Notes: generated from the sequence alone by a model not told the origin. A stretch of 49,383 nt of DNA from a virus (IMGVR_UViG_3300027533_000006:1-49383), one strand, 5' to 3'. Shown: positions 1-48,873, counted from the stretch's first letter. Translations and numbers: made by a program.

Positions 1-127
1 ACCACGTTCCGGATGTCGAGGAAGGCCTGATGGGCTGGGGCGAAGGTCCTTTCTCCAGCGTCACGGTCGTGATCGCGATCGTCTGGCTGATCTGCATCGT
101 ACTGAGCGGACGACAGGGGGTGAAATA
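1..127. repeat. Terminal direct repeat, left copy (circular assembly overlap)
   Basis: 1-127 is identical to 49257-49383; 127 nt is a common assembler k-mer length, implying a complete circular contig of 49,256 bp. Confidence 0.95.
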
Positions 128-128
128 G
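30..128 (+). CDS. Small membrane peptide (32 aa, MGWGEGPFSSVTVVIAIVWLICIVLSGRQGVK)
   Basis: ATG overlaps the TGA of the upstream gene (TGATG); one hydrophobic helix; below the ORF-track cutoff. Confidence 0.5.
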   Translation: MGWGEGPFSSVTVVIAIVWLICIVLSGRQGVK

Positions 129-192
129 TTGGTGTATGTGGTGTTTGTGTAATGGAAGAGAGAGGATAAACTTCTCTCACTAGGAGGTAGAG

Positions 193-5717: not shown

Positions 5718-6386
5718 ATGAACGGAGTCGTACTTCTCTCGGGTGGAATGGATAGCTCCACCCTGCTCGCACACTGCATCGACGCCTTCCCGGACGGACG
5801 GCACTACGCCATCTCGTTCGACTACGGGCAGAGGCACCGCCGGGAGCTCAACGCTGCCGCCGACATCGCACGGTATTTCAATACCCCCCACCAAATCGCG
5901 GACCTCCGTTCCGTTGGCCGTGACTTCATGTTCGGCAGCTCGCAGACCAGCATGATCCCAGTACCACAGGGCCACTACACGGACGACTCGATGCGCGTCA
6001 CCATCGTGCCGAACCGGAACATGGTGATGCTCTCCATTGCCACGGCGTTCGCAATTGCTAGCCATTCCGACTTCGTTGGCTACGCCGCGCACGCAGGGGA
6101 CCACGCGATCTACCCCGACTGCCGGCCGGAATTCGTCACCGCGATGGGCGAAGCCATTCGCCTGTGCGACGACCACAAGGTCAGCATCTACACCCCGTAC
6201 ATCGACCTGACGAAGGCACAGATCCTCGAGGAGGGCCTGTACCGTAACGTCCCTTACCAGCTTACCTGGACCTGTTACGAGGGCCTCAGCTTCCCCTGTG
6301 GGAAGTGTGGCACCTGCGTAGAACGGGCCGAGGCATTCGAGCTCAACAAACAGGGTGACCCCCTTCTCCAAGGAGGACCAGCATGA
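5718..6386 (+). CDS. queC: 7-cyano-7-deazaguanine (preQ0) synthase
   Basis: SGGMDS PP-loop, YGQRH, VPNRN, YPDCR, and TCY...CGKCGTC zinc site. Confidence 0.97.
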   Translation: MNGVVLLSGGMDSSTLLAHCIDAFPDGRHYAISFDYGQRHRRELNAAADIARYFNTPHQIADLRSVGRDFMFGSSQTSMIPVPQGHYTDDSMRVTIVPNRNMVMLSIATAFAIASHSDFVGYAAHAGDHAIYPDCRPEFVTAMGEAIRLCDDHKVSIYTPYIDLTKAQILEEGLYRNVPYQLTWTCYEGLSFPCGKCGTCVERAEAFELNKQGDPLLQGGPA

Positions 6387-7030
6387 ACGTGGAACAACGT
6401 GATCACATCTTCCCGCACATCAAGGATCTCGTCCCCCAGTACCTTCACGTGCGTACACACATCGCAGGCTCCGCTGCGATCACGGACACCTTCCACGACG
6501 TGGACGTCTGGATCCTCTGCGAACGAGGGCAACGGAAGTCCGTAGTGGAGGTCGTCCTCGCGCACCTCCACACGTTCGAGGAGTGTGTCGTAGACCAATC
6601 GCCTACTGCGCTCTACGGGATCCCGAACCTGAACAAGGTGGCCACAGTCTTCCACATGATCGACCAACCGATCCAGATCATGGTGTGGGAAGACCTCCAG
6701 GCGGACGAGGACAATGAACCGGACCTCCTCAACCTCCTCTCGGAGTTCGACCTCTCCGTGCACATGTGGGCGTACTCACTCGTGGATATCTACAAGCGCC
6801 GGTTCCAACACCCAGCGGCCACGCTCCCTGGCAACCCGATCGAGGTGCTCCGCTTCACCACTCCACACAGCACGCTGCGTCGGTACATCACGCTCAGCGA
6901 CAGGTATCGGACGAAGCTGAACTGGGAGTACATCGAGGAACTGGCCCGTCGGATCGTGGCCGTCGCCGAGCAGAAGGCCCTCAAGCAGATCGAGGACCTC
7001 GGAGTTCAACCTCCTTCGGAGCTGCTGTGA
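6383..7030 (+). CDS. Pol-beta superfamily nucleotidyltransferase (CCA/poly(A) polymerase head-like)
   Basis: IAGS-x7-HDVDVW catalytic signature; FDLSVHMWA resembles the DFTINA motif; ATGA-coupled to queC. Confidence 0.65.
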   Translation: MNVEQRDHIFPHIKDLVPQYLHVRTHIAGSAAITDTFHDVDVWILCERGQRKSVVEVVLAHLHTFEECVVDQSPTALYGIPNLNKVATVFHMIDQPIQIMVWEDLQADEDNEPDLLNLLSEFDLSVHMWAYSLVDIYKRRFQHPAATLPGNPIEVLRFTTPHSTLRRYITLSDRYRTKLNWEYIEELARRIVAVAEQKALKQIEDLGVQPPSELL

Positions 7031-7875
7031 CTCTGACGTGGTGGGAGTGGGAAGAACTCGAGGGCGCCATCCAGGAACGAAAGGAACTGTGGCGCGAGCA
7101 TCCGGAACGGACGCACACCTACTTCCGGATGCTCGACGACACTCCTGTCTACGCCCTTCAAGCGATGCCTGGACCAGGTCGCTCCGAGTTCCGCCTGGTC
7201 CAAGTTCTTGGGATCCCACTTACGTGGCCCCAGAGCGAGGTGGATGCACACCTCGACATGATGCGAGAACGTTTCACCTCCTTCCCGTTCAGGCAGGAGG
7301 TGGAACAGTTCCTCTTGAAGGAGGACGTCCTCAAGGACCCCTCCAAGTCGAACATCGTGGCCATCGTCATCGCGAGGATGCAGCAATCTCCGATCAACGA
7401 GCCGATGCCCGCGAAGATCCCCTTTCCCCATGAGGAGAGAAGGTTCACCCTCCACGAGGGAGGCAGCATCAAGTTCTGGCGACAGGGAGACATGCTCCGT
7501 TGTTACATGGAACTGCGCCGGGACGGCAACCTGGGACCCACGAGTGGCAGCTTCATCCTGCTCGACGGCCACATGCGCATCCGTGGGACATCCATGAAGC
7601 GCGCATTGGAGTGGCTTACAGGGGACAAGGAGATCGAGGAGATGCTCCGTGACCCACACGCACATGCAAGGAGACGCCTAGATGCCGAGTCTGCCGAAAG
7701 GCAAAGTAACCTACCGCTGGAGTCCCAAAGCGGGGATGCGAGCAGCGCAGCTAGCGGACCTGGGGACCCCAGTCAAGGTGACGATCGTCGACGCGATTTA
7801 CCTGAAGACGGAGGGCTCCCGAGTGCTGCAACTGATCATCGAGCCCTCGGAGTCTTTCCTCCAGGAGAAGAATGA
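7027..7875 (+). CDS. Hypothetical protein
   Basis: GTG 7027 overlaps the NTase stop (GTGA); in frame with track ORF 6766-7875. Confidence 0.7.
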   Translation: MTLTWWEWEELEGAIQERKELWREHPERTHTYFRMLDDTPVYALQAMPGPGRSEFRLVQVLGIPLTWPQSEVDAHLDMMRERFTSFPFRQEVEQFLLKEDVLKDPSKSNIVAIVIARMQQSPINEPMPAKIPFPHEERRFTLHEGGSIKFWRQGDMLRCYMELRRDGNLGPTSGSFILLDGHMRIRGTSMKRALEWLTGDKEIEEMLRDPHAHARRRLDAESAERQSNLPLESQSGDASSAASGPGDPSQGDDRRRDLPEDGGLPSAATDHRALGVFPPGEE

Positions 7876-7882
7876 TGACTGA
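7682..7882 (+). CDS. Small hypothetical protein (66 aa) overlapping the upstream gene's 3' end
   Basis: RBS AAGGAG; protein-like composition. Confidence 0.55.
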   Translation: MPSLPKGKVTYRWSPKAGMRAAQLADLGTPVKVTIVDAIYLKTEGSRVLQLIIEPSESFLQEKNDD

Positions 7883-8798
7883 ACTCTACCTGGAGGTGGA
7901 CGAAGAGGTGATCAACCTGAACCAATCTCGGGTTCAGACCTTCCTCCGCTGTCACCGCAAGTACGGTTGGTTCTATCACGAGCACCTCCAACCTGACAGG
8001 CCGACATACGCACTCTCGTTCGGAACCGCGGTCCACGCGGCCCTAGCGGAAGTGGCCAGTGGCAAGCTGCAGCTCGACCAGGCACTTAAGCACGGGATCG
8101 AGGTGTTCCGGAAACAGATGCCGGAAGGCAAGTTCCCCGGGGACGAGGTGATCGTCAACGAACACATCGAGCTGATGGAGCGAATGCTCCCAGCGTACTA
8201 CGCTCACTACGAGCACGACCACAACCCGTGGAAGCCGATCGGTCTCGAGGTTGCAGGGCGCATCGAGATCGGGACGGACACAAACGTGTTCCTCGTGTTC
8301 CGCACGGATGAACTAGCGCTCCAGGACAAGATGCTCTGGATCGTCGACCACAAGACGGCCGCGCGTCTCGATCCCAGGGACATGCTCAAGTACGAGATGG
8401 ACCTGCAGATGACCGCCTATACGTACGCGATCACGAAGAAGCTCTCCCAGGAAGCAGGACGTGCGGTCCGAGTGGCCGGCGTGATCGTGAACGTCCTCGT
8501 GAAGACCGCGGTGCCCCAGTTCCACCGGGAGCGCTTCGTGCGGACGGATGAGGACCTGGAGGAGTTTGAGCGGGAGTTCGTCGAGATCGCCCGGGAGATT
8601 CGGTGGAGACACCGCCGAGTGAAGGAGGGCGAGGACTGGAAGCAGGTGTTCTACAAGAACACGAACGAGTGCTTCTCCTACGGAACCTGCTACTTCAGGG
8701 ACCTGTGCCTGAAGGACAACCCGATACGGCGGATGGCCTACATCAGTCGCAAGAGGGACTATGTGGACGATCCAACGATCCTGGAGAAGAAGGCGTGA
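7872..8798 (+). CDS. PD-(D/E)XK exonuclease, Cas4/AddB-like with Fe-S cysteines
   Basis: RC.RKY, FGTAVH, E...D...IVDHKT, Q..AY and C-terminal C-x5-C-x5-C. Confidence 0.88.
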   Translation: MMTELYLEVDEEVINLNQSRVQTFLRCHRKYGWFYHEHLQPDRPTYALSFGTAVHAALAEVASGKLQLDQALKHGIEVFRKQMPEGKFPGDEVIVNEHIELMERMLPAYYAHYEHDHNPWKPIGLEVAGRIEIGTDTNVFLVFRTDELALQDKMLWIVDHKTAARLDPRDMLKYEMDLQMTAYTYAITKKLSQEAGRAVRVAGVIVNVLVKTAVPQFHRERFVRTDEDLEEFEREFVEIAREIRWRHRRVKEGEDWKQVFYKNTNECFSYGTCYFRDLCLKDNPIRRMAYISRKRDYVDDPTILEKKA

Positions 8799-8809
8799 AG
8801 GACAGGATC

Positions 8810-9139
8810 ATGACCTTGGTGGGGGGTAACGTTCTCACCATCCAACTTCTCCCGGGTAACGTGCTAATCACACGTGACCCAATCATCGACACAACGCCCA
8901 GTGGCCTGATCGTCCTCCCTCCACACTACGAGGAACTGTCCACACGGGCCTACGTCCACCTCCACGAGCCAGGCGGATACTGGGAGTGGTGGGGCGGTGA
9001 ACCACCTCTCACGGGCGCCTGGGTGGTCATCGAGAAGTTAGCAGGGCGCCCATTTACACTTCACGGCCTCGATCTGTGGATCCTTCCGGAGCACAGCATT
9101 CTGGCCGTAGAGGAGGCACAGTGTTCCGAGACGAGTTGA
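8810..9139 (+). CDS. GroES/Cpn10-like co-chaperonin
   Basis: LLPGNVLITRD...TTPSGLIVLP (mobile loop) and C-terminal ILPEHSILAV; alternative start GTG 8795. Confidence 0.65.
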   Translation: MTLVGGNVLTIQLLPGNVLITRDPIIDTTPSGLIVLPPHYEELSTRAYVHLHEPGGYWEWWGGEPPLTGAWVVIEKLAGRPFTLHGLDLWILPEHSILAVEEAQCSETS

Positions 9140-9288
9140 AAGAGGAAGTGGGCAAGCTGATCGACAGCGTGGTAGCGGAGAACACCACGCTGACCGATGA
9201 CGACCTCATCGCGATCGAGAACGCCCTCGAGGATCTGGGCGAGCTCGTGGCCGAAGCGGACAAGGACGATGGGGACACCGGTAATTAA
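9121..9288 (+). CDS. Small acidic protein
   Basis: RBS GGAGG before GTG 9121. Confidence 0.65.
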   Translation: MFRDELKEEVGKLIDSVVAENTTLTDDDLIAIENALEDLGELVAEADKDDGDTGN

Positions 9289-9496
9289 GCCGGGAGAAGC
9301 CCTCACACTGTACGAGGACGGACACGAGGTAGCTCGTGTCCGTCTCCGATACAGCGACCTCGGGGTGATCCTCGAGGTGGCACAGCGTAAGCCCGGCACG
9401 CACGTCTGGATTCCGTGGACAGACATGGTCCACCTTACCACGGTCGGTGGGCGGATCAGCTTCGCGGTCACGGGGAAGAGAGGGGATATAGCGTAA
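9269..9496 (+). CDS. Hypothetical protein (75 aa)
   Basis: RBS AAGGA; its stop overlaps the next ATG. Confidence 0.6.
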   Translation: MGTPVIKPGEALTLYEDGHEVARVRLRYSDLGVILEVAQRKPGTHVWIPWTDMVHLTTVGGRISFAVTGKRGDIA

Positions 9497-10347
9497 TGCC
9501 ATTCGAACTCCTGCGCACGAGCAGTCTCAAGGCGCCAAGGGCGACGATCCTCGTGTATGCACCTCCGCGCTGGGGGAAGACACATCTTGCACGGACGTGT
9601 CCCAAACCTCTGGTGATAAGTACGGAGGCAGGAAGCACCGGCGGCCTGATGACACTGTCAGACCTCGACCTACCGGCCGTGAGGGTGAGGAGCTGGGACG
9701 AGATGGTCCAGTTGATTGCCACGCTCCGTAAGACACCTGGCCGCGTGGAGCTGGACGGTGAGATCTTCGAGACGGTGTTCATCGACAGCCTCGGACCCGG
9801 ATGTGGCGAGCTGTGGATGCAGGCCGGAATGAAGATCATGGGCTGGAAGGACGTCTGGGGGGTGGAGAAAGGGAAGGATCCCAGGCGGGTCTACAGCTAC
9901 ATCAGTGAGAAGGGACAACAGGCTATGAAGTTGTTCCTGTCGCTGGACGCACACCTCGTGATGACCTCACGAGTGACCATCCTCGAGGAGTCGGTGGGCT
10001 TCGACGACAAGGGGAACGAGATCAAGGTACAGTACGAGGTGCCCGACCTCCCAGGCCAGCAACTGCCGAAGAAGCTGACAGGGGAGACGGACGCCACGCT
10101 CTACGGAGAGTTCCGGGGCGCGACACGCGTCTTCCGGACGAAGAACCAGGGGAAGCGGGTAAGCGGCATAAGGGCTCCAGGAGGAACGCCGATCCCGGAT
10201 CCGATCCTGGCGAACATCACAGACGTGATCGCCCTGATGATGGGCGACATGACGGCTGTGAAGCGACTTGAGGTCCCTAAACCGGGGACCTCTGGAAGGG
10301 CCACAACGGCCACAACGACCACGACACGTGGTCAAGGAGAAGCGTAA
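9496..10347 (+). CDS. Sak4-like/AAA_24 ATPase (ssDNA annealing recombinase)
   Basis: YAPPRWGKT Walker A and VFIDS Walker B; lies between the exonuclease and the DUF669 SSB. Confidence 0.85.
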   Translation: MPFELLRTSSLKAPRATILVYAPPRWGKTHLARTCPKPLVISTEAGSTGGLMTLSDLDLPAVRVRSWDEMVQLIATLRKTPGRVELDGEIFETVFIDSLGPGCGELWMQAGMKIMGWKDVWGVEKGKDPRRVYSYISEKGQQAMKLFLSLDAHLVMTSRVTILEESVGFDDKGNEIKVQYEVPDLPGQQLPKKLTGETDATLYGEFRGATRVFRTKNQGKRVSGIRAPGGTPIPDPILANITDVIALMMGDMTAVKRLEVPKPGTSGRATTATTTTTRGQGEA

Positions 10348-10745
10348 TGGCACAACTGCCTGGCGGACCCGTCCGCACCGGAGACCTCGCGTCCAGCCTC
10401 ATGCCGGACGCCGTTTACACCTTCCGCATCGACCGCGCCGAGATCAAGAAGGCGCAGGGAGAGGGGAAGGAACCCTACATCAACCTCATGCTCAAGTGCG
10501 TCGACGAGGGCGAGTGGCTCGGTCGCGCGGTGTGGGACATCCTCACGCTGGCCAAGGGCAAGACCTTCAAGCTCGACCAGCTCCTGAAGGACGCCCTCGG
10601 ATGGGGCGAGGACGACACGCTGGACGACACCGACCAGCTCCTCCAGCTCGAGGTCTGCGCTGCCATCACGACGGAGAAGGGCCAAGCGGGCTACAGCGAT
10701 CGTAACAAGGTCGTGAAGTACCTCCCCACGGACATCGCCCGCTAA
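10347..10745 (+). CDS. DUF669-like ssDNA-binding protein
   Basis: MPDAVYTFRI...GEWLGRAVWD...N.V..Y pattern; typical Sak4 partner. Confidence 0.8.
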   Translation: MAQLPGGPVRTGDLASSLMPDAVYTFRIDRAEIKKAQGEGKEPYINLMLKCVDEGEWLGRAVWDILTLAKGKTFKLDQLLKDALGWGEDDTLDDTDQLLQLEVCAAITTEKGQAGYSDRNKVVKYLPTDIAR

Positions 10746-10814
10746 CGGCGTAGAACAACAATACCCCCCACCAACTCAGACTTGGTGGGGGGTAACGTGA
10801 CCAAGAGATCACAC

Positions 10815-11060
10815 ATGGACAAAGAGTATCGACGAGTCTGGTGCCGTATCATGAGACACCAAACTCCCATTTCCCGTTGGAGTAGACAGAATGACCGACA
10901 TACTACAGGACGTAGACCGCTTCCTCCGGATCGCGCAGACGGACGAGCTCCGCATCCTCCGCGACATGACGGAGAAGGAGCTGTCCCGTCGGAACGAGGC
11001 ACCTGCTTTCTCGAATGCCCAGACTGTCTCCGGAGGAGCGCAGGCTGGAGCGTACCGTGA
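10815..11060 (+). CDS. Possible small Zn-binding protein overlapping the next gene
   Basis: WC.IMRH...FLECPDC.R.S.GW motif; overlaps 10891-11577 in another frame. Confidence 0.35.
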   Translation: MDKEYRRVWCRIMRHQTPISRWSRQNDRHTTGRRPLPPDRADGRAPHPPRHDGEGAVPSERGTCFLECPDCLRRSAGWSVP

Positions 11061-11577
11061 GGAGGCCCGGGAGAACATGAAATCGGTGTCGATGCACACC
11101 TTCGCCACAGGGGCCAAGCGCAGCGAGCGGATGCCCAGATACGACCTCGTCGTCCACGACCTCATCCGCCGGATCGCGGAGCGGGCTACAGGAGAGGAGA
11201 CTCCAAACGGTCCAAGTGGCGGAGCACTCAAGTACGGTGAGGGCAACTGGGAGCGCGGGCTCCCGACCAGTGATGTGTTCAACCACATCATCCACCACCT
11301 CGGACGTCTCCAGGAAGAGTTCCGGGACGGTCTCTCCATTGCGTCCCGTTACGATGGCCAGGAACCGTGGCCGTTACGGATGGACGCCATCCGTAACCGC
11401 ATCAACGCTTTCCTCGCGGAGGACGATCACATTGGGGCTGTGGGATGGGGACTCATGGTCCTGTGTCATCAGCTCAAGACAGGCTTCTACCACGACACGA
11501 AGTTTGAGCAGGATACGGAAGTGCCACCTGTCCCTGTGGAGACAACGTTACCCCCCACCAAATCGAGGAAGCGATGA
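10891..11577 (+). CDS. dATP/dGTP diphosphohydrolase domain protein (DUF5664-like); alternative start ATG 11077
   Basis: F.TGAKRS...PRYDL...GALKYGEGNWERG...H...H...EDDH motif; directly coupled to queD. Confidence 0.8.
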   Translation: MTDILQDVDRFLRIAQTDELRILRDMTEKELSRRNEAPAFSNAQTVSGGAQAGAYREEARENMKSVSMHTFATGAKRSERMPRYDLVVHDLIRRIAERATGEETPNGPSGGALKYGEGNWERGLPTSDVFNHIIHHLGRLQEEFRDGLSIASRYDGQEPWPLRMDAIRNRINAFLAEDDHIGAVGWGLMVLCHQLKTGFYHDTKFEQDTEVPPVPVETTLPPTKSRKR

Positions 11578-12002
11578 ACTGTACCGCCCGAGTGACCATA
11601 GCAATGGGACACAGGCTTCTGGGGCACGACGGTCTATGCGCAAACATCCATGGCCACAATTACGTGTTCGAAGTGACCGTGATGGGTAACCCTGACGCAG
11701 TGGGCCTTGTGACAGACTTCTCGATCCTGAAGAAGGACATGCGGAAGCTCCTGGACCAACTCGACCACACGATGCTCCTGATTAAGGGGGACCCGGCCCA
11801 GGCGTACTTCGAGTCGACGGACAACCGCTTCATGCTCCTCACCCGAAATCCGAGTGCGGAGCACATCGCCTCGCTCATGTTCAACCACATGCAGGACCTC
11901 GCGTACAGCGTGAAGGAGGTCAGGGTGTTAGAGTCGGATGGTGGATGGGCCACCACCGACCGTGTTAACCGGGAAGTGCACCTGATAAAGGGGCGTGTAT
12001 GA
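11574..12002 (+). CDS. queD: 6-carboxy-5,6,7,8-tetrahydropterin synthase
   Basis: GHRL...C.NIHGHNY, LDH, NPSAE motifs. Confidence 0.95.
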   Translation: MNCTARVTIAMGHRLLGHDGLCANIHGHNYVFEVTVMGNPDAVGLVTDFSILKKDMRKLLDQLDHTMLLIKGDPAQAYFESTDNRFMLLTRNPSAEHIASLMFNHMQDLAYSVKEVRVLESDGGWATTDRVNREVHLIKGRV

Positions 12003-12631
12003 ACTACCCACTCGCCGAGAAGTTCAAGTCCATCCAGGGAGAAGGCATCTTCACAGGCACCCCGATGGCATTCGTCCGCATGGTCGGCTGCTCCGTGGGC
12101 CAGGGTGTATGTACTGCCTGCGACACGGACTTTGACCGGATGTACCCACAGCTTGGTGGGGGGTTGCACACTCCCCTCCAAATCGCTGAATGGGCAGAGC
12201 CCTACCACATCCTCTGCATTACGGGTGGGGAACCACTGGACCGCAACCTCTGCCTGCTCGTGGACGTGGTCCACAAGTTCGGAATGAAGGTCCACGTGGA
12301 GACCAGTGGCACCGTGGAGTACGATCCCGCAAGACACGGCTCCATCGACTGGATCACCGTGTCGCCCAAGCCGGGCTTCCTCCCCACAATGATCGAGCAG
12401 GCCTGTGAGCTCAAGGTGATCCTCGGGGGCCTGGGAGACACTACGGAAGGTTGGCCTACAGTGGAGCAAGCGAGACGCTGGGCCAAGGAGAAGGAGTTGG
12501 TCTACCTGCAGCCTCGGAACAAGAAGAACGTGATCGACGACATCGAGATGCAGAACGCAGAGGATGTCGTGCTCCACTACCCGGAGCTGAGGCTCAGCAC
12601 CCAGTTCCACAAGTTCATCAACGTGCGATGA
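11999..12631 (+). CDS. queE: 7-carboxy-7-deazaguanine synthase (radical SAM)
   Basis: F.SIQGEG, C-x6-C-x2-CDTD, ITGGEP, VETSG, VSPK, YLQP, QFHK. Confidence 0.95.
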   Translation: MNYPLAEKFKSIQGEGIFTGTPMAFVRMVGCSVGQGVCTACDTDFDRMYPQLGGGLHTPLQIAEWAEPYHILCITGGEPLDRNLCLLVDVVHKFGMKVHVETSGTVEYDPARHGSIDWITVSPKPGFLPTMIEQACELKVILGGLGDTTEGWPTVEQARRWAKEKELVYLQPRNKKNVIDDIEMQNAEDVVLHYPELRLSTQFHKFINVR

Positions 12632-13215
12632 CCAAGACAACGTTACCCCCCACCAAGCGGTTCGACGACCGCAAGATGCAACAAGGGGTCAAACTCCTCC
12701 TGGAGGGAATGGGAGTAGATCTGAGTGATCGTAATTACAAGGACACACCTGCCCGCGTCGCACGTATGTACAGGGAACTGTTTACTCCCCGTCACAACAG
12801 CTTCGCCACCTTCCCTGAACAACACGACTCCATGGTCATCCTCCGGGGTCACGTGGTGCACGGAGTCTGCCCACACCATCTCGTTCCAGTGGAGATGCGT
12901 GTGTACGTCGGTTACATTCCGCATAAAGAGGTCCTCGGTCTCAGCAAGCTGGCTCGAGTCGCTGAACAACCTCTCACAGGACCCATTATGCAGGAAACTT
13001 ACACAGACGCGGTGGTCGATCTCCTGCAACACGCCACAGACGCGAAAGGCGCTGGAGTCGTTGTTGTGGGGCGCCATGGTTGCATGCGCCACAGGGGAGT
13101 TCGCTCCGACGCAGACGTTGTCTCCTCTGCCATGAGGGGTCTCTTCATGACCAATCACCCCACCCGAGACGAGTTCCTCCGGATGATCGGCTACCCACGA
13201 GTGGAGGCAAGATGA
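12628..13215 (+). CDS. folE: GTP cyclohydrolase I
   Basis: TPARVAR, CPHHL.P, GLSKLAR, QE, H.CM..RG; ATG 12628 overlaps the queE stop. Confidence 0.95.
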   Translation: MTKTTLPPTKRFDDRKMQQGVKLLLEGMGVDLSDRNYKDTPARVARMYRELFTPRHNSFATFPEQHDSMVILRGHVVHGVCPHHLVPVEMRVYVGYIPHKEVLGLSKLARVAEQPLTGPIMQETYTDAVVDLLQHATDAKGAGVVVVGRHGCMRHRGVRSDADVVSSAMRGLFMTNHPTRDEFLRMIGYPRVEAR

Positions 13216-13370
13216 CAGAACAAGAGATGGTCGGTCTCATTCAAGACCTGATCGAGCACCTCGAGTATTGCGGATGGGGAGACAGGTGGGAACGTGACGT
13301 ATCAGAGGAGCTACGTATCCGGGCCACGGCGTTTCTAGAACGTTACCCCCCACCAAAGGAGGCGTCGTGA
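13212..13370 (+). CDS. Small hypothetical protein (52 aa)
   Basis: RBS GGAGG; ATGA overlap. Confidence 0.65.
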   Translation: MTEQEMVGLIQDLIEHLEYCGWGDRWERDVSEELRIRATAFLERYPPPKEAS

Positions 13371-13654
13371 AGCAAACACACAAGGGGAAACGATACCCCC
13401 CATCAACGCATGACGAGCGCTACCAGGTCCGGAACGAATACATCGAGCGGGCACTGCGTACCCTGGCCACCTTGATCGACGAGGAGGTCCCGGAAGGGTG
13501 GGGATGGGGCCTGTTCCTCGTCCCGTTCGGAGAGCACGAAGCTGCCCCGAAGGGAGAGGGAGCCGTGTTCTGGATCTCCAACTCTGAGCGTGACGGGATG
13601 ATGGACTCCGTCCAGGGTTGGATAGACGATAACAAGAGACGGAGGAAGATGTGA
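13367..13654 (+). CDS. Hypothetical protein (95 aa)
   Basis: RBS AGGAGG; GW.L...F...WISN.ER pattern. Confidence 0.75.
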   Translation: MKQTHKGKRYPPSTHDERYQVRNEYIERALRTLATLIDEEVPEGWGWGLFLVPFGEHEAAPKGEGAVFWISNSERDGMMDSVQGWIDDNKRRRKM

Positions 13655-16128
13655 AGTGTCAAAACTCCGTCTGCAAGTCCGGCCCGGATGGCAAATCCGC
13701 AACCTCGGATTTGCACCCGAACACTGGGTTGTGCCCAGTGTGCCAGAAGCGCTTGATCACGGGACCCAAGCCTGACGACTGTATGGCGTGCCCCCTCTAC
13801 GAGATTGGTGAGGGGTACGCCTATGGTGTCGGACCCACGGATGCCGATATGATGTTCATCGGCGAAGCACTCGGCGAGGAGGAGGCCCGTAGGGGCCTCC
13901 CCTTCGTCGGTGGCTCTGGCCGGGTGCTCACTGCGCTGATGGGCCAAGCGGACATCCGCCGTGACGAGGTCTACATAACCAATGCCGTGAAATGTCGGCC
14001 ACCCAAGAACAGGAAGCCAGACGATGAAGAAATCCGATGGTGTGCCCGCTACCTCGTCAACGAGCTCAAACTCGTCAACCCCAAACTCCTCGTCCCTCTC
14101 GGAGCGACTGCGCTCTACGTCACTACAGGAAAGACAGAGATCGGTAGCTATCGCGGGATACCTATTGAGGGCGCTGGAGGAAGGAAGGTTCTCCCCACGT
14201 TTCACCCCGCGTTCGTCATGCGTACACAAACGTTCTGGCCGGTCGTCGTCTGGGACCTCGTCAAAGCGAAGCGGGAATCGCGGTTCCGGGAAGTCCGTCG
14301 CATCGACGTGGAGTATTCCATCCTCCCTGATGCTGAGGATCACGCAGATGCTGTTAGAAGAGAAGCCGAACTCACCGGCTTCGTCTCGATCGACGCCGAG
14401 ACAACGAGCCTCGACGTCCATGAAGCTCACATCAAATGCTACGGCGTCGGGTCGGCCGCAGGTCGTGCTAGGGTTTTCCGCTGGACCCCTCAAGCTCAGC
14501 GCCTACTCTACGGGCTCCTCTCAGATCCTACGATTGTTAAGGTCGGACAAAACTCCGAATCCTACGACTGGCCCCTCTTCGAAGACAAACGGCCAGGTTG
14601 GCGAGTAGCGGGGAACACCTGTGACACGATGCTCATGTTCCACCTTACAAACTCCGACCTTCCGAAGTCGCTGGACAACATCAAGACCTTCTACACGGAC
14701 ATGGAGCACTGGAAAGATGACTCTATGTACAAGGGTGATGAGGTTGGACTGGCCACTGGCTGCGCTAAGGACGTGGACGCGACCACACGTGCTTACCTGG
14801 GCCTTCGCGCTGAGATCCACAACATGGGGATGGATGACCTCCTATACAAGAACGTGATGCCCCTGCAACCCATCCTCCGTCGCATGGCCGACCGTGGAAT
14901 TCGGAAGGACACGGACAAAGCGGAACTCTGGGCACATGGAATGACCGCGGCCGCAGGCCGCTACGAACAGATGCTCCGGGATGCAGTGGGTCAGCCTAAC
15001 CTCAACGTGCAGAGCCCCAGGGAGTTGATGAAGCTCCTGTACGACACCATGGGCCTTCCCGTTCAACACGTGAAGGACCAGAAGGGCGGGATGCGTGCTA
15101 CGGCGAACGCGGCGGCGGTGGAAGCGCTGGTCGAGAAGTTCCCGGAGAACAAGATCCTGGGCCTGATCAACGAGATCCGAAGCGCTCACCACACCGTCAG
15201 CACGAATCTAGAGGTAAAGACCGATGAGCAGGGCTTCGTCCACCCACGTTTCGGGTGTGCTAAAGCGGCAACTGGGCGTATCAATTCGTGGGATCCGAAC
15301 GCCCAGAACATTCCGAAGAAGCTCCGGGAGATCTACATCCCGGACGATCCAGATCACGTTTTCATCAGCGTGGACTGGAGCCAGGTCGAGTGGCGAATTG
15401 CAATGGCACTCTCTGGCGATCCTTACGGTCTCGGACTTCTGGCGGCTGGTCAGGACATTCACGAGGTTACGGCCGCAGAGGGTTTCGGTCTACCTCTTTC
15501 TCGAGTCCGAGACCTCGTTCCCGGTAAGCAGTACAATTACCGTTACGCCACGAAGTTCATCGTGTACGGCCTCGGCTACGGACGGGGAGCACAGTCAATC
15601 GCTCAGCAGCTCGGGACAACCAAGTCGTGGGTCGAGTCCTTCCTGCTCCGCTTCTTCAACAAGTACCACGTGTACGAACGGTGGCGCAAGTCCCTCGAGG
15701 AACAGGTCGAGCGACAGCACTTCCTCGCTAACCCGTTCGGCCGACGGAGGTGGTGGTACACCAGGCAAGTGACGGAGATGTACAACTTCCCTCCGCAGAG
15801 CACGGGAGCGGACATGATGTACGTCGCCATACGGGAAGCGGACGAGCAGCTCCCACACGGAGCGAGTGTAAGGCTTACCGTGCACGACGAGCTCGTGGTT
15901 GTGAGCCACAGGGATGTAGTGAAGGAGGCCACGGAATGTCTCACAAGTGTGATGCAACGCTCATGGCCGGAAATCGTGGGCGCCTCACGCGATCCAGCTA
16001 CAGTGCGCAAGTTCTATCCTCACGGATGGCGCGTGCCCGCAGAGCCCAGCTACGGGCCGAGGAATTGGATGGAGACGAAGCTGGAAGGGGAAGCACAGAT
16101 GAAGTTCAGGAAGGAGCTCGGACTATGA
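13651..16128 (+). CDS. polA: Family A DNA polymerase with N-terminal family-4 uracil-DNA glycosylase domain and 3'-5' exonuclease
   Basis: UDG4: C..CPL, GEALG.EE, PFVG.SG, N.VKCRPP.NR.P, FHPA. Exo: DAET. Pol: DWSQVEWR, R...K...YG..YG, VHDE. Confidence 0.95.
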   Translation: MKCQNSVCKSGPDGKSATSDLHPNTGLCPVCQKRLITGPKPDDCMACPLYEIGEGYAYGVGPTDADMMFIGEALGEEEARRGLPFVGGSGRVLTALMGQADIRRDEVYITNAVKCRPPKNRKPDDEEIRWCARYLVNELKLVNPKLLVPLGATALYVTTGKTEIGSYRGIPIEGAGGRKVLPTFHPAFVMRTQTFWPVVVWDLVKAKRESRFREVRRIDVEYSILPDAEDHADAVRREAELTGFVSIDAETTSLDVHEAHIKCYGVGSAAGRARVFRWTPQAQRLLYGLLSDPTIVKVGQNSESYDWPLFEDKRPGWRVAGNTCDTMLMFHLTNSDLPKSLDNIKTFYTDMEHWKDDSMYKGDEVGLATGCAKDVDATTRAYLGLRAEIHNMGMDDLLYKNVMPLQPILRRMADRGIRKDTDKAELWAHGMTAAAGRYEQMLRDAVGQPNLNVQSPRELMKLLYDTMGLPVQHVKDQKGGMRATANAAAVEALVEKFPENKILGLINEIRSAHHTVSTNLEVKTDEQGFVHPRFGCAKAATGRINSWDPNAQNIPKKLREIYIPDDPDHVFISVDWSQVEWRIAMALSGDPYGLGLLAAGQDIHEVTAAEGFGLPLSRVRDLVPGKQYNYRYATKFIVYGLGYGRGAQSIAQQLGTTKSWVESFLLRFFNKYHVYERWRKSLEEQVERQHFLANPFGRRRWWYTRQVTEMYNFPPQSTGADMMYVAIREADEQLPHGASVRLTVHDELVVVSHRDVVKEATECLTSVMQRSWPEIVGASRDPATVRKFYPHGWRVPAEPSYGPRNWMETKLEGEAQMKFRKELGL

Positions 16129-16358
16129 AAATTGGAGACATCGAGAGGGACAGCCACACCTCGTGCTACACATGTGGCTGCGGCTGCTTCACCAAGGTGT
16201 ACAACGTGAACATGCAAGGACGGGGAGAGGAGACACTGCACCCAGCGTACCAGTGCGTCCGCTGTGGCAGCGTGCTCGCGTTCCTCCTGGACAAGAATCG
16301 GCATCGGGAGGTTGTGGGCAGCATCTGTGTCGAAGTGAAGATGGAGGTCGCGAAGTGA
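16125..16358 (+). CDS. Zn-ribbon protein (77 aa)
   Basis: CYTC and CVRC; RBS AAGGAG; ATGA overlap with the polA stop. Confidence 0.7.
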   Translation: MKIGDIERDSHTSCYTCGCGCFTKVYNVNMQGRGEETLHPAYQCVRCGSVLAFLLDKNRHREVVGSICVEVKMEVAK

Positions 16359-17077
16359 AGCTGTGTATGGAGATTCCCGTCGAACACCTCTGGGACCTCT
16401 CGCCTCTGTGCGAGATGGACTTCGCCCTGGCACACATGGTTCTGGACAACAAGCTCTACGCCGAGTTCTACCGGGAGATGAGTGCACGGGGCAGGGAGGT
16501 AATCCTTGACAACAGCTTCCACGAGCTGGGAGTGCCCCTGAGCCCAGTCGAGCTCCGCTTGGCCGCGAGGGCGATAAAGCCCACAGTGGTCGTTGCGCCA
16601 GACCGGCTCGGAGATAGAACGTGGAACTGGGAGCAGTATGAAGAGACGCTCCGTGTGTTCAAGAAGGAGTTCCAGGTCGGGATCGTGGTTACTGGAGGAG
16701 ATCCCAACGTCCGGAGCCAGTTCATAGCGGCCGCGCTAAGCCGAGGTTGCAGCTGGTTCTTCTGGCCCTTCAAGGAGCCACGTAGCGAATGGATCCGGAC
16801 GCACATCCAGGAGTTCAAGCGATACGAGGTCCGGCACCATCTCCTCGGAGTGAACACCCTGTCCGAGCTAAAGAGCATCCGCACGATCCTCGAGGAGCAA
16901 GGGATCAAGGCAAGTGTGGACACCAGTAAGCCGATCAAGTTCGGGCAACAGCTGAAGCGGTTCGAGCCGGGGATCGATTTACGGGGAACGGGGCCGTTAC
17001 GGATGGACGCTGTCCTGACAAAGGAGGAGCTGGCGTGCACGTACTACAACGTGGCGTATCTCAGGAGATTCGCATGA
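16355..17077 (+). CDS. dpdA: Divergent DpdA/TGT-like (TIM-barrel) 7-deazaguanine transglycosylase
   Basis: ILDNS, APD.LGD, HHLLG and SVDTS correspond to TGT/DpdA motifs; same arm as queCDE/folE. Confidence 0.7.
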   Translation: MKLCMEIPVEHLWDLSPLCEMDFALAHMVLDNKLYAEFYREMSARGREVILDNSFHELGVPLSPVELRLAARAIKPTVVVAPDRLGDRTWNWEQYEETLRVFKKEFQVGIVVTGGDPNVRSQFIAAALSRGCSWFFWPFKEPRSEWIRTHIQEFKRYEVRHHLLGVNTLSELKSIRTILEEQGIKASVDTSKPIKFGQQLKRFEPGIDLRGTGPLRMDAVLTKEELACTYYNVAYLRRFA

Positions 17078-18465
17078 AGCAGGCGACGCCACTCCCAATC
17101 AGCCAGCAGATCGCGAAGCTGATGGAGTTCCTCGCCGGAGTCAACGACGTACGTGGTGGCGCCCTGTACAACCAGATCCTAGAATGGGTCTTGTTGCTCC
17201 CACCCGCCTCTCGCCCGCCTGAACTACTCCGTGCGATGCAACACAGCTTCCACCTCACGGACGCGGAGCTCTCTACTGCCTTGGACATGAAGAAGAAGCG
17301 GATCCCCGACTTCATGTCCCTGGTGCCAGCGCAGAGCTGGCTTGCGGACTACATGCTCTTCACCCTCAACACGGAGCCGCCTGATGTCTTCCACTTCTTC
17401 GCCGGATGTGTCGCTATTGGAAGCGTGCTGGGCCGGAACGTCTACTACGACAAAGGGGCGTATCAAATCTACCCTAACCTTGCAGTTCTTATCGTTGCAC
17501 CCTCCGGGAAGTGCCGGAAGACAAGTGCTTGCAATGTTGCAATGTCCCTCCTGCGCAAGGGGGGTGGAACTGTACTTGCAGACAAAGCTACCCCTGAAGC
17601 TCTTACTGCTGCCTTCCAAGACAAGACGGAGTCCATCGCTACGATCTACGCCCCGGAGTTCGCGGTCTTCCTCGGCAAGCAAAAGTACCAGGAGGGGATG
17701 ATCCCCCTCCTGACCGCGCTCTTCGACTGTCCGAAGGAGTTCAAGAGCGTCACGATCACGAGGGGAGAGGTGATCCTCTACAACGCGGCCTTCTCAATGC
17801 TAGCCTGCAGCACCATGGACTGGATCCAGACCGCCATTCCGAGGGACGCGTTTGGTGGGGGGTTCATGTCCAGGCTCCTCTTCGTAATCCAACACGACAC
17901 TCCCCGGATCTTCCCCCGTCCCCCGGCCATGAACAAGGAACTGGAATCACGGCTGGTCCAGGGACTCAGAACCCTGAGCGGGTTACGGGGGGAGTTCCAC
18001 ATGACTGCCGAAGGCGAGCAGTGGTACGACAACTGGTATCTCAACAGAGGGGAGTCAGGGAACACGGACAAGCAGTTCGCCGGGTACTCGGAGCGGAAGC
18101 CGGATCACCTTATCCGTCTCGCCATGATCCTCTCAGCGAGTGGCGGAAGTTCCTTGGTCCTCACTCCTGCTAACCTGAAGCGGAGTCTCCAGATTCTGGA
18201 GTGGTTGGAGCTCTTCCTCCCAGGTGCCTTCGGAGAGATGAACCAGAACGCCTTCGGAGAAGATCAGTCACGGTTGCTGACCCAGCTCAAGCGGAAGGGT
18301 GGCAAGATGCTCCACAGCGACTGGCTCCGCTTGAACAGCAATCGGATGAGACAGAGGGAGTTCCGGGAACTGATGGAGACCCTGAAGAGCGCAGGCCTCG
18401 TCGAGTACGACGCGCCCACACATACGTACTTCCTAACAACAGAGGGATGGGCTTTCAACACCTAG
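17074..18465 (+). CDS. DUF3987-like P-loop helicase/replication protein with C-terminal winged helix
   Basis: YPNL.VLIVAPSG.CRKTS, TPEAL, EF, GGFMSR motifs. Confidence 0.75.
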   Translation: MKQATPLPISQQIAKLMEFLAGVNDVRGGALYNQILEWVLLLPPASRPPELLRAMQHSFHLTDAELSTALDMKKKRIPDFMSLVPAQSWLADYMLFTLNTEPPDVFHFFAGCVAIGSVLGRNVYYDKGAYQIYPNLAVLIVAPSGKCRKTSACNVAMSLLRKGGGTVLADKATPEALTAAFQDKTESIATIYAPEFAVFLGKQKYQEGMIPLLTALFDCPKEFKSVTITRGEVILYNAAFSMLACSTMDWIQTAIPRDAFGGGFMSRLLFVIQHDTPRIFPRPPAMNKELESRLVQGLRTLSGLRGEFHMTAEGEQWYDNWYLNRGESGNTDKQFAGYSERKPDHLIRLAMILSASGGSSLVLTPANLKRSLQILEWLELFLPGAFGEMNQNAFGEDQSRLLTQLKRKGGKMLHSDWLRLNSNRMRQREFRELMETLKSAGLVEYDAPTHTYFLTTEGWAFNT

Positions 18466-48223: not shown

Positions 48224-48289
48224 GTGGTACTTGAAATTGAGGTAGTTGTGGTAGTTATGTTTTTGGTTTGTGTTAATTAGGAGGTAGTG

Positions 48290-48472
48290 ATGGAAAAGAA
48301 GAATTGGGTTGAAGAAGGGTTTGTGAAGAAGAGTGTTGAGATGTTGGTTAGGAGGAATGGGAAGTTTTTGCAGGTGGTGGTAGTTGGGAAGGATGGTAAG
48401 GAAGGTTATTTTTTGATGAGTGAGGTTGTTGAGTTTTGGGATGTTAGAGAGAAGAAAGGGTTTGAGTTGTAG
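48290..48472 (+). CDS. Cytosine-free early gene (60 aa; GTG 48287 is an alternative start)
   Basis: RBS TAGGAGGT, open frame and downstream terminator; only one C (Gln codon CAG at 48371). Confidence 0.8.
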   Translation: MEKKNWVEEGFVKKSVEMLVRRNGKFLQVVVVGKDGKEGYFLMSEVVEFWDVREKKGFEL

Positions 48473-48477
48473 GAGGG

Positions 48478-48511
48478 AAAAAGCTAGCTGAAAAGCTAGC
48501 TTTTTTTTTTT
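48478..48511 (+). terminator. Rho-independent (possibly bidirectional) terminator
   Basis: AAAAAGCTAGC-tgaaaa-GCTAGCTTTTTTTTTTT. Confidence 0.88.
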
Positions 48512-48596: not shown

Positions 48597-48625
48597 TTGA
48601 CGTTGGGGTTAAATTGTGATAGTAT
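48597..48625 (+). promoter_or_regulatory. Sigma70-like promoter (TTGACG-17-TAGTAT, extended -10)
   Basis: Consensus spacing, upstream of RBS AAGGAGG. Confidence 0.7.
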
Positions 48626-48651
48626 GTGGTTATTTGTGAAGGAGGATAGAT

Positions 48652-48873
48652 ATGGACGAAGGCAATATATCGATCGTGTTGCTTCGGAGTACAGTCGTAC
48701 TCAAGAAGATCTGCGGACACGACACGATCGTCGTATGCGGCGTGTGTCCGACATGCGGGGCGAAGATCGACTTCCTGGTCACGGTGTACAGCGATCAGAC
48801 ACCTGAGGAGGCATTCGAACAGTTCTGGCGAACGGTAGAGCTCGACTGTCCGCGAGGAGAGGATCATGAATAA
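48652..48873 (+). CDS. Cys-rich hypothetical protein (73 aa)
   Basis: RBS AAGGAGG; CPTCG. Confidence 0.75.
   Translation: MDEGNISIVLLRSTVVLKKICGHDTIVVCGVCPTCGAKIDFLVTVYSDQTPEEAFEQFWRTVELDCPRGEDHE

Follow-up and report, generated by a model that had tools for sequence, protein, structure and literature searches.

A DpdA3-type 7-deazaguanine system with a predicted dNTP pyrophosphohydrolase, no detectable kinase, and a nearly C-free first gene in a complete phage genome

The DpdA3 phages measured so far, Campylobacter phage CP220 (dADG, 100%), Cellulophaga phage phiST (dDG), and the Flavobacterium virus vB_FspM_immuto_2-6A (fdPreQ1), are all three reported as fully substituted at G (PMC10516641). 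Supplementary Data S1 of the same paper (Cui et al., 2023) lists two Bacillus phages, BSP7 and BSTP5, with DpdA3 together with FolE, QueD, QueE, and QueC. Here, we describe the sequence of an uncultured phage, IMGVR_UViG_3300027533_000006, which was analyzed over its whole length of 49,383 bases (hereafter, the window). It is a complete genome with direct terminal repeats of 127 bases and a GC content of ~60%. We conclude that it carries an intact DpdA3-type 7-deazaguanine system (Table 1), which is of a known kind but forms a new subclade. The gene complement itself is the one already tabulated for BSP7; what stands out is the layout, with a hydrolase and without a kinase, and a first gene whose coding strand is nearly free of C. 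In what follows, the window genome is G000, its relatives carry other G numbers, and DpdA-type loci carry L numbers.

The central gene encodes what an earlier, sequence-only reading had described as a short and divergent TGT-like protein with the motif LDNSFHELG. That description holds. The protein adopts a TIM-barrel TGT fold, and D52, D83, and D189, which match the acid-base, base-binding, and nucleophile aspartates of TGT/DpdA enzymes, are invariant across 13 homologues and align with the DSGAF, LD, and DSSSW motifs of DpdA1. By tblastn, the closest DpdA proteins are the DpdA3 enzymes of phiST, CP220, and immuto_2-6A, rather than any DpdA1. The top match in BFVD is the phiST protein M4SLA5 (TM 0.81), whilst a sequence search of the PDB gave no match. 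In a quick tree from which DpdA2 and DpdA4 were left out, and which carried long-branch warnings for phiST and BSP7, 77 DpdA3 rows, the window protein among them, split from eight DpdA1 rows with an SH-aLRT of 100. Sequence comparison thus supports membership of the DpdA3 subfamily, in a new and separate subclade whose window member is 22-28% identical to the measured enzymes; fold, motifs, best matches, and tree together support a 7-deazaguanine genome. The gene had been placed between polA and a helicase gene. The flanking order is right, and is kept in nearly all members of the phage family, but a 77-aa open reading frame (ORF) intervenes after polA and the presumed helicase is a DUF3987 protein (annotated by PHROG as primase).

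All four genes for preQ0 synthesis (folE, queD, queE, queC) are intact and keep their motifs. The window QueC lies above the TIGR00364 cut-off of 150 bits, whereas CP220 QueC (139.3 bits) falls below it; the window protein is 42% identical to QueC of BSP7 and 35% identical to that of CP220. On these scores and identities, the window protein may make preQ0 rather than ADG, the product of the QueC* form. The QueD motif, CxxxHGH, differs from the LxxxHRHxF given for DpdL (PMC10516641), and the Cx6CxxC cluster motif of QueE is conserved among relatives. In G015 (L138:8462-8953), and also in G018, a SAM methyltransferase gene lies between queE and folE and may add a further modification.

The earlier reading had also noted the lack of QueF, ArcS, Gat-QueC, and PurZ, and this was borne out. 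Hidden Markov models (HMMs) built from related loci for QueF, Gat, DpdN, kinase, and DUF3310 found no match in six frames of the window, although the DUF3310 search matched no control either; Pfam found no adenylosuccinate synthetase (PurZ), ArcS, or kinase among the 95 window ORFs scanned (52 + 43). DpdL was not found in the window, and DpdM had no search by a model of its own. The gene set is that expected for dPreQ0, with FolE, QueD, QueE, and canonical QueC present and QueF, Gat-QueC, ArcS, DpdL, and DpdN absent. The default product remains dPreQ0, but CP220, the sole measured phage with such a complement, has dADG. We regard dPreQ0 as the fairly probable modified base of this phage and dADG as an unlikely one, and we think it quite likely that G is replaced nearly completely.

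Set beside the described systems, the window shares its complement with the one listed for BSP7 and BSTP5, likewise without QueF, and in these phages, too, dpdA3 adjoins polA. In contrast to the window, dpdA3 of BSP7 is preceded by a P-loop kinase-like gene, DUF5664 was not detected, a C-free gene is lacking, and the genome is of siphovirus type. CP220, phiST, and immuto_2-6A share a DpdA3 enzyme with LDNS, PD, HLLG, and DT motifs, but have kinase-like genes beside dpdA3, hydrolases of MazG, HD, or PRA-PH type, and the accessory proteins DpdL, QueF, DpdN, and QueC*. The DpdA1 systems of 9g, CAjan, and iggy have preQ0 genes, a TGT-fold enzyme, and their own polymerase, but differ in the DSGAF motif, a length of ~307 aa, a beta-clamp neighbor, partial post-replicative modification, and loci devoid of kinase and DUF5664 genes. 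Finally, the predicted logic is that of the Z-genome pathway (PurZ/PurZ0, DUF5664/DUF550/MazZ, and DpoZ), which likewise combines a family A polymerase with a dNTP pyrophosphohydrolase of the DUF5664 type; unlike it, the window has no PurZ, its polymerase scores 47.8 bits on the DpoZ model against a cut-off of 500, and the targeted base is G, not A.

Table 1. Positions of the features discussed, counted from the first base of the window
Feature	Coordinates	Strand	Remarks
Third C-free run	115-170		Covers a further early promoter
QueC, preQ0 synthase, without Gat domain	5718..6386	+	PF06508 E 3e-56; TIGR00364 175.4 bits
Nucleotidyltransferase-like protein (Gad2-like)	6383..7030	+	Accessory; only in some relatives; overlaps queC
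Conserved protein of unknown function, start codon approximate	7027..7875	+	Homologues in G001, G005, G006; family searches without match
Replication-module genes: PD-(D/E)xK exonuclease, Sak4-like AAA_24, SSB-like	7872..10745	+	
DUF5664 protein, predicted dNTP pyrophosphohydrolase	10891..11577	+	PF18909 E 2.7e-7, above cut-off
QueD	11574..12002	+	PF01242 E 2e-25; CANIHGH
QueE radical SAM protein, Cx6CxxC variant	11999..12631	+	phrog_2076 E 1.6e-22; TIGR04508 E 3.6e-25
FolE, GTP cyclohydrolase I	12628..13215	+	PF01227 E 2.5e-41; start overlaps queE stop
Family-4 UDG, 3'-5' exonuclease, and family A DNA polymerase fusion	13651..16128	+	PF03167, PF01612, PF00476
DpdA3-subfamily guanine transglycosylase, 240 aa	16355..17077	+	TGT fold; D52, D83, D189
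DUF3987 primase/helicase-associated protein	17077..18465	+	PF13148 E 7e-14; phrog_14296
C-free coding strand (G-free template)	48231..48483	+	Extended -10-like element, leader, ribosome binding site, 60-aa ORF, then hairpin and T run
C-free run over second early promoter and ribosome binding site	48602..48656	+	Sigma70-like site 48597-48625

The second such feature, a cassette with a G-free template strand, had been attributed to the replacement of G. The cassette is real, with a single C in 253 nt of the + strand (binomial P of 4e-31 for one C in 200 nt) and sharp borders. Its 60-aa ORF (48290-48472), predicted to be the short first-read gene of the phage, has its only C in a Gln codon and encodes a protein without Ala, Pro, Thr, or His, for which ESM Atlas gave no usable match. 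Two further early promoters lie in C-free runs of 55-56 nt, in both G000 and G001, whilst the genes behind them are C-rich. G001 also retains the cassette, and 25 of the 26 substitutions between the two genomes avoid C, 18 of them being transversions; the avoidance of C looks like selection. As an explanation, however, the deazaguanine module falls short. The G-free stretch occurs in only 2 of 10 complete DpdA3 genomes of the family and in neither phiST nor BSP7, and in G011, G037, and G038, whose module is the same, the 60-aa gene has homologues with a C content of 18-24%. The module alone is therefore insufficient, the cassette is compatible with G replacement without being explained by it, and its use as a general marker of DpdA3 is ruled out. 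In G011, two copies of the 60-aa gene family stand in tandem (G011:C1:19400-20020). A low-G spot in the gut phage G028 proved to be an A-rich promoter, not a cassette, and 4- and 6-mer palindromes gave no clear pattern of restriction-site avoidance. Our literature search, which left most subscription papers outside, found no description of a C-free phage gene.

We consider it likely that the cassette is an extra, lineage-specific adaptation that would let host RNA polymerase express the first gene quickly from modified DNA. In a study of modified templates, 7-ethynyl- and 7-vinyl-7-deazaG give the strongest block of bacterial RNA polymerase, at initiation, whilst unsubstituted 7-deazaG is tolerated (PMC4838386). 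This pattern would fit both dPreQ0 in the window phage and the lack of a cassette in phiST. The same study saw no elongation block and used templates modified on both strands, so it does not account for the strand bias of the cassette. Possible, though short of an even chance, is an origin unrelated to deazaguanine, either through loss of C from the first-injected DNA by a deamination bias or through selection for C-free mRNA (CTP depletion or a defense by chain terminators). Such an origin would accommodate the C-rich homologues beside the same module, the lack of such a stretch in phiST and BSP7, and the complete genome G046, in which the early strand is C-poor (~10% C over 2 kb; G046:C1:5300-7800) in the absence of DpdA and Que genes. 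Against it stand the sharp borders, the substitutions between G000 and G001, and the C-free runs that span two promoters of C-rich genes, as well as G005, whose first gene is a different one and yet also has only ~5% C. At locus L301 of G046, two ORFs resemble subunits of a TPP enzyme by eye and perhaps point to another DNA modification.

How G would be replaced is a separate question. Going by gene content, we give an even chance to a nucleotide-level, pre-replicative route. The DUF5664 protein would cleave dGTP, its predicted substrate, to dGMP, on which DpdA3 would exchange the base; kinases of the host would turn the product into the modified triphosphate for incorporation by the phage PolA, so that most or all genomic G would be replaced by a 7-deazaguanine, probably dPreQ0. 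Z-phages use the host guanylate kinase Gmk, and by analogy the same enzyme may serve here. According to Hutinet 2019 (PMC6884629), a modified-dGTP route was already proposed for Campylobacter phages; the idea of a nucleotide route is therefore already in print.

Besides the full substitution in all three measured DpdA3 phages and the failure of DpdA3 in E. coli (see below), two lines of evidence speak for this reading. The first is the hydrolase, which keeps the DUF5664 motifs YDL, GALKYGEGNW, NHxxxHL, and DDHxGA with their conserved His and Asp residues; a stand-alone DUF5664 protein, that of phage Wayne, is reported to turn dGTP into dGMP (PMC12884076). Within the phage family, PF18909 occurs in 12 of 19 DpdA3-bearing records and in 0 of 9 DpdA3-less ones (Fisher p of 0.003, for records that are not independent), a count that omits the truncated Que-bearing fragments G005 and G053; among records at least 90% complete, the figures are 7/10 and 0/3. 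The three complete DpdA3-bearing records without PF18909 have a small MazG-like ORF (G006), a weak DUF1599-like match (G018), or DUF3310 (G041). The slot 5' of queD is usually occupied by DUF5664 in this family; where DUF5664 is missing, the slot holds a MazG-like gene (G006), a DUF1599-like gene (G015 and G018; Pfam E of 0.21 only), or a dNMP kinase gene (G047; PF21448 E 1.5e-7).

The second line is the company that dpdA3 keeps. We compared 68 DpdA3 loci (80 retained of 233 DpdA3-like viral loci, of which 64 were kept after removal of near-duplicates, plus four from GenBank) with the best 80 of 520 DpdA1 loci, mostly from one phage lineage. Kinase-type HMMs matched 41/68 DpdA3 loci and 0/80 DpdA1 loci, hydrolase-type HMMs 42/68 and 4/80, and one or both types 59/68 and 4/80; DUF5664 was found at 0/80 DpdA1 loci. 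The HMMs were derived from DpdA3 loci and are biased towards them, and the hydrolase matches of L037, L051, and L054 are self-matches. We therefore clustered the 1,258 ORFs neighboring dpdA1 separately; an N-terminal Walker A motif was absent from every cluster, and Pfam found no kinase and no dNTP pyrophosphatase in 50 of the 81 shared clusters. A nucleoside deoxyribosyltransferase family was present at five DpdA1 loci. A P-loop kinase-like gene lies at most two genes from dpdA3 in each of CP220, immuto_2-6A, phiST, and BSP7, and at L300 (1476-2893) a gene of the thymidylate kinase family stands directly between queC and dpdA3. The kinase gp1.7 of T7 acts on dGMP. In the other large DpdA3 clade, that of large phages, an AAA_28 kinase or DUF3310 is found in 38 of 41 rows, the two alternating in one slot, and DUF3310 has been linked to the T7 kinase (PMC10700055).

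The bias just described is one of several points that weigh against a nucleotide route here. No kinase was detected in the window by the kinase HMMs, PF21448, Pfam on the 95 ORFs, or a Walker A scan, and kinases are rare in its subclade (4 of 31 rows by HMM, five with G047). The stand-alone DUF5664 that was assayed has a tenfold preference for dATP, cleaves dUTP as well, and is also found in phages with canonical genomes (PMC12884076). The DpdA3-less records come from more distantly related phages, and one of them, the Que-less G043, has a DUF550/MazG-like and a DUF6378 gene. Net charge and a Zn motif, tried as signs of a small substrate, do not separate 66 DpdA3 from 77 DpdA1 proteins. Two arguments of the sequence-only reading were dropped. 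The overlap of the DUF5664 gene with queD, taken as translational coupling, exists but is unremarkable, for all seven junctions checked overlap by 1-4 nt; and the phage's own polymerase is no discriminator, as one adjoins dpdA in the DpdA1 phages 9g, Me-ZS1, and RHEph06, where modification is post-replicative. Of the case for base exchange on nucleotides, the enrichment of kinase and hydrolase genes at DpdA3 loci and the association of DUF5664 with DpdA3 thus survive.

The published model has DpdA3 acting on DNA after replication at nearly every G, with DUF5664 as a general sanitizer of the nucleotide pool (dUTP/dATP) that matches the UDG domain of the polymerase. The abstract and discussion of Cui et al. 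propose that all such modifications, by DpdA3 included, are post-replicative (PMC10516641), and all TGT/DpdA enzymes characterized act on polymers (PMC10164549). The model would also suit the position of dpdA3 between polA and DUF3987, the window's lack of a kinase, and the dUTPase activity of DUF5664. We nevertheless regard it as somewhat doubtful for this phage: DpdA3 expressed in E. coli failed, unlike DpdA1 and DpdA2 (PMC10516641), the kinase and hydrolase genes are enriched at DpdA3 and not DpdA1 loci, and DUF5664 is absent from all nine DpdA3-less family records. Our literature search found no paper that tests DpdA3 on nucleotides.

Least probable is a reversion of the subclade to modifying DNA only in part and at specific sequences, as DpdA1 does at GA/GGC, with the kinase lost in consequence and the cassette avoiding modified contexts: it could draw on the rarity of kinases, on the GA motif reported for iggy (PMC10484667), on the context of residual Cs near the cassette (best 300 nt; TC/CC 0 versus AC/GC 4 in G000, and 0 versus 6 in G001), and on an early coding strand of G053, a fragment with Que genes whose dpdA would lie outside it, that is nearly without TC/CC and keeps AC/GC (G053:C1:10420-10850), but the cassette avoids all template G and not GA/GG alone, G005 has no context bias (9 versus 11), and substitution is complete in every DpdA3 phage measured.

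In the rest of the genome, the + strand carries the early and replication genes and the - strand those for terminase, portal, capsid, and tail fiber. The replication-module genes are present in Que-less relatives too, as is the fusion of UDG to PolA, which is common to the whole family; the family-4 UDG domain (13651-14270) has intact-looking motifs. A promoter-like motif, TGTGATATAATGT, recurs at positions 1788 and 5079, 5' of early and replication genes. The nucleotidyltransferase-like protein has homologues in G001 and G011 and no match in Pfam or NCBIfam; its ESM Atlas matches (0.94-0.96) include two clusters in which 19-26% of members carry PF26128 (Gad2). Gad2 has an anti-Gabija role, and the window protein may be an anti-defense protein. 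The GTDB matches are six contigs of metagenome-assembled genomes, probably mis-binned phage DNA, and indicate no host. Further afield, gut-type phages at L067, L068, L071, L072, L076, and L081 have DpdA3, DpdN, MazG, DUF3310, and a transporter-like gene without FolE, QueD, QueE, or QueC, none of which was found by HMM in the complete G029 or in G028; these phages likely import the base.

Taken together, these phages of 45-60 kb might practice a minimal pre-replicative G replacement, in which a hydrolase of dGTP, a TGT-fold enzyme that uses the free nucleotide, host kinases, and the phage PolA would yield full dPreQ0 substitution. In one lineage, the first gene and the early promoters would have been recoded to rid their template strand of G, and the 60-residue protein, made first, would enable host RNA polymerase to transcribe the modified genome. 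This whole scenario we hold to be speculative and, as it stands, unlikely. Its parts bear on how DpdA3 achieves 100% replacement of G, for which the published, post-replicative view sits beside an enzyme that failed in E. coli. As a test system the window genome is compact, with three proteins (DUF5664, DpdA3, and PolA); if the nucleotide route is true, base exchange by a TGT on a free nucleotide would be chemistry new to the superfamily and would offer a way to DNA in which all G is substituted. Likewise, a protein-coding gene cleared of one base would mark, at the level of sequence, how host transcription is limited by modified DNA, and its 60-aa product is a candidate RNA polymerase or anti-defense factor.

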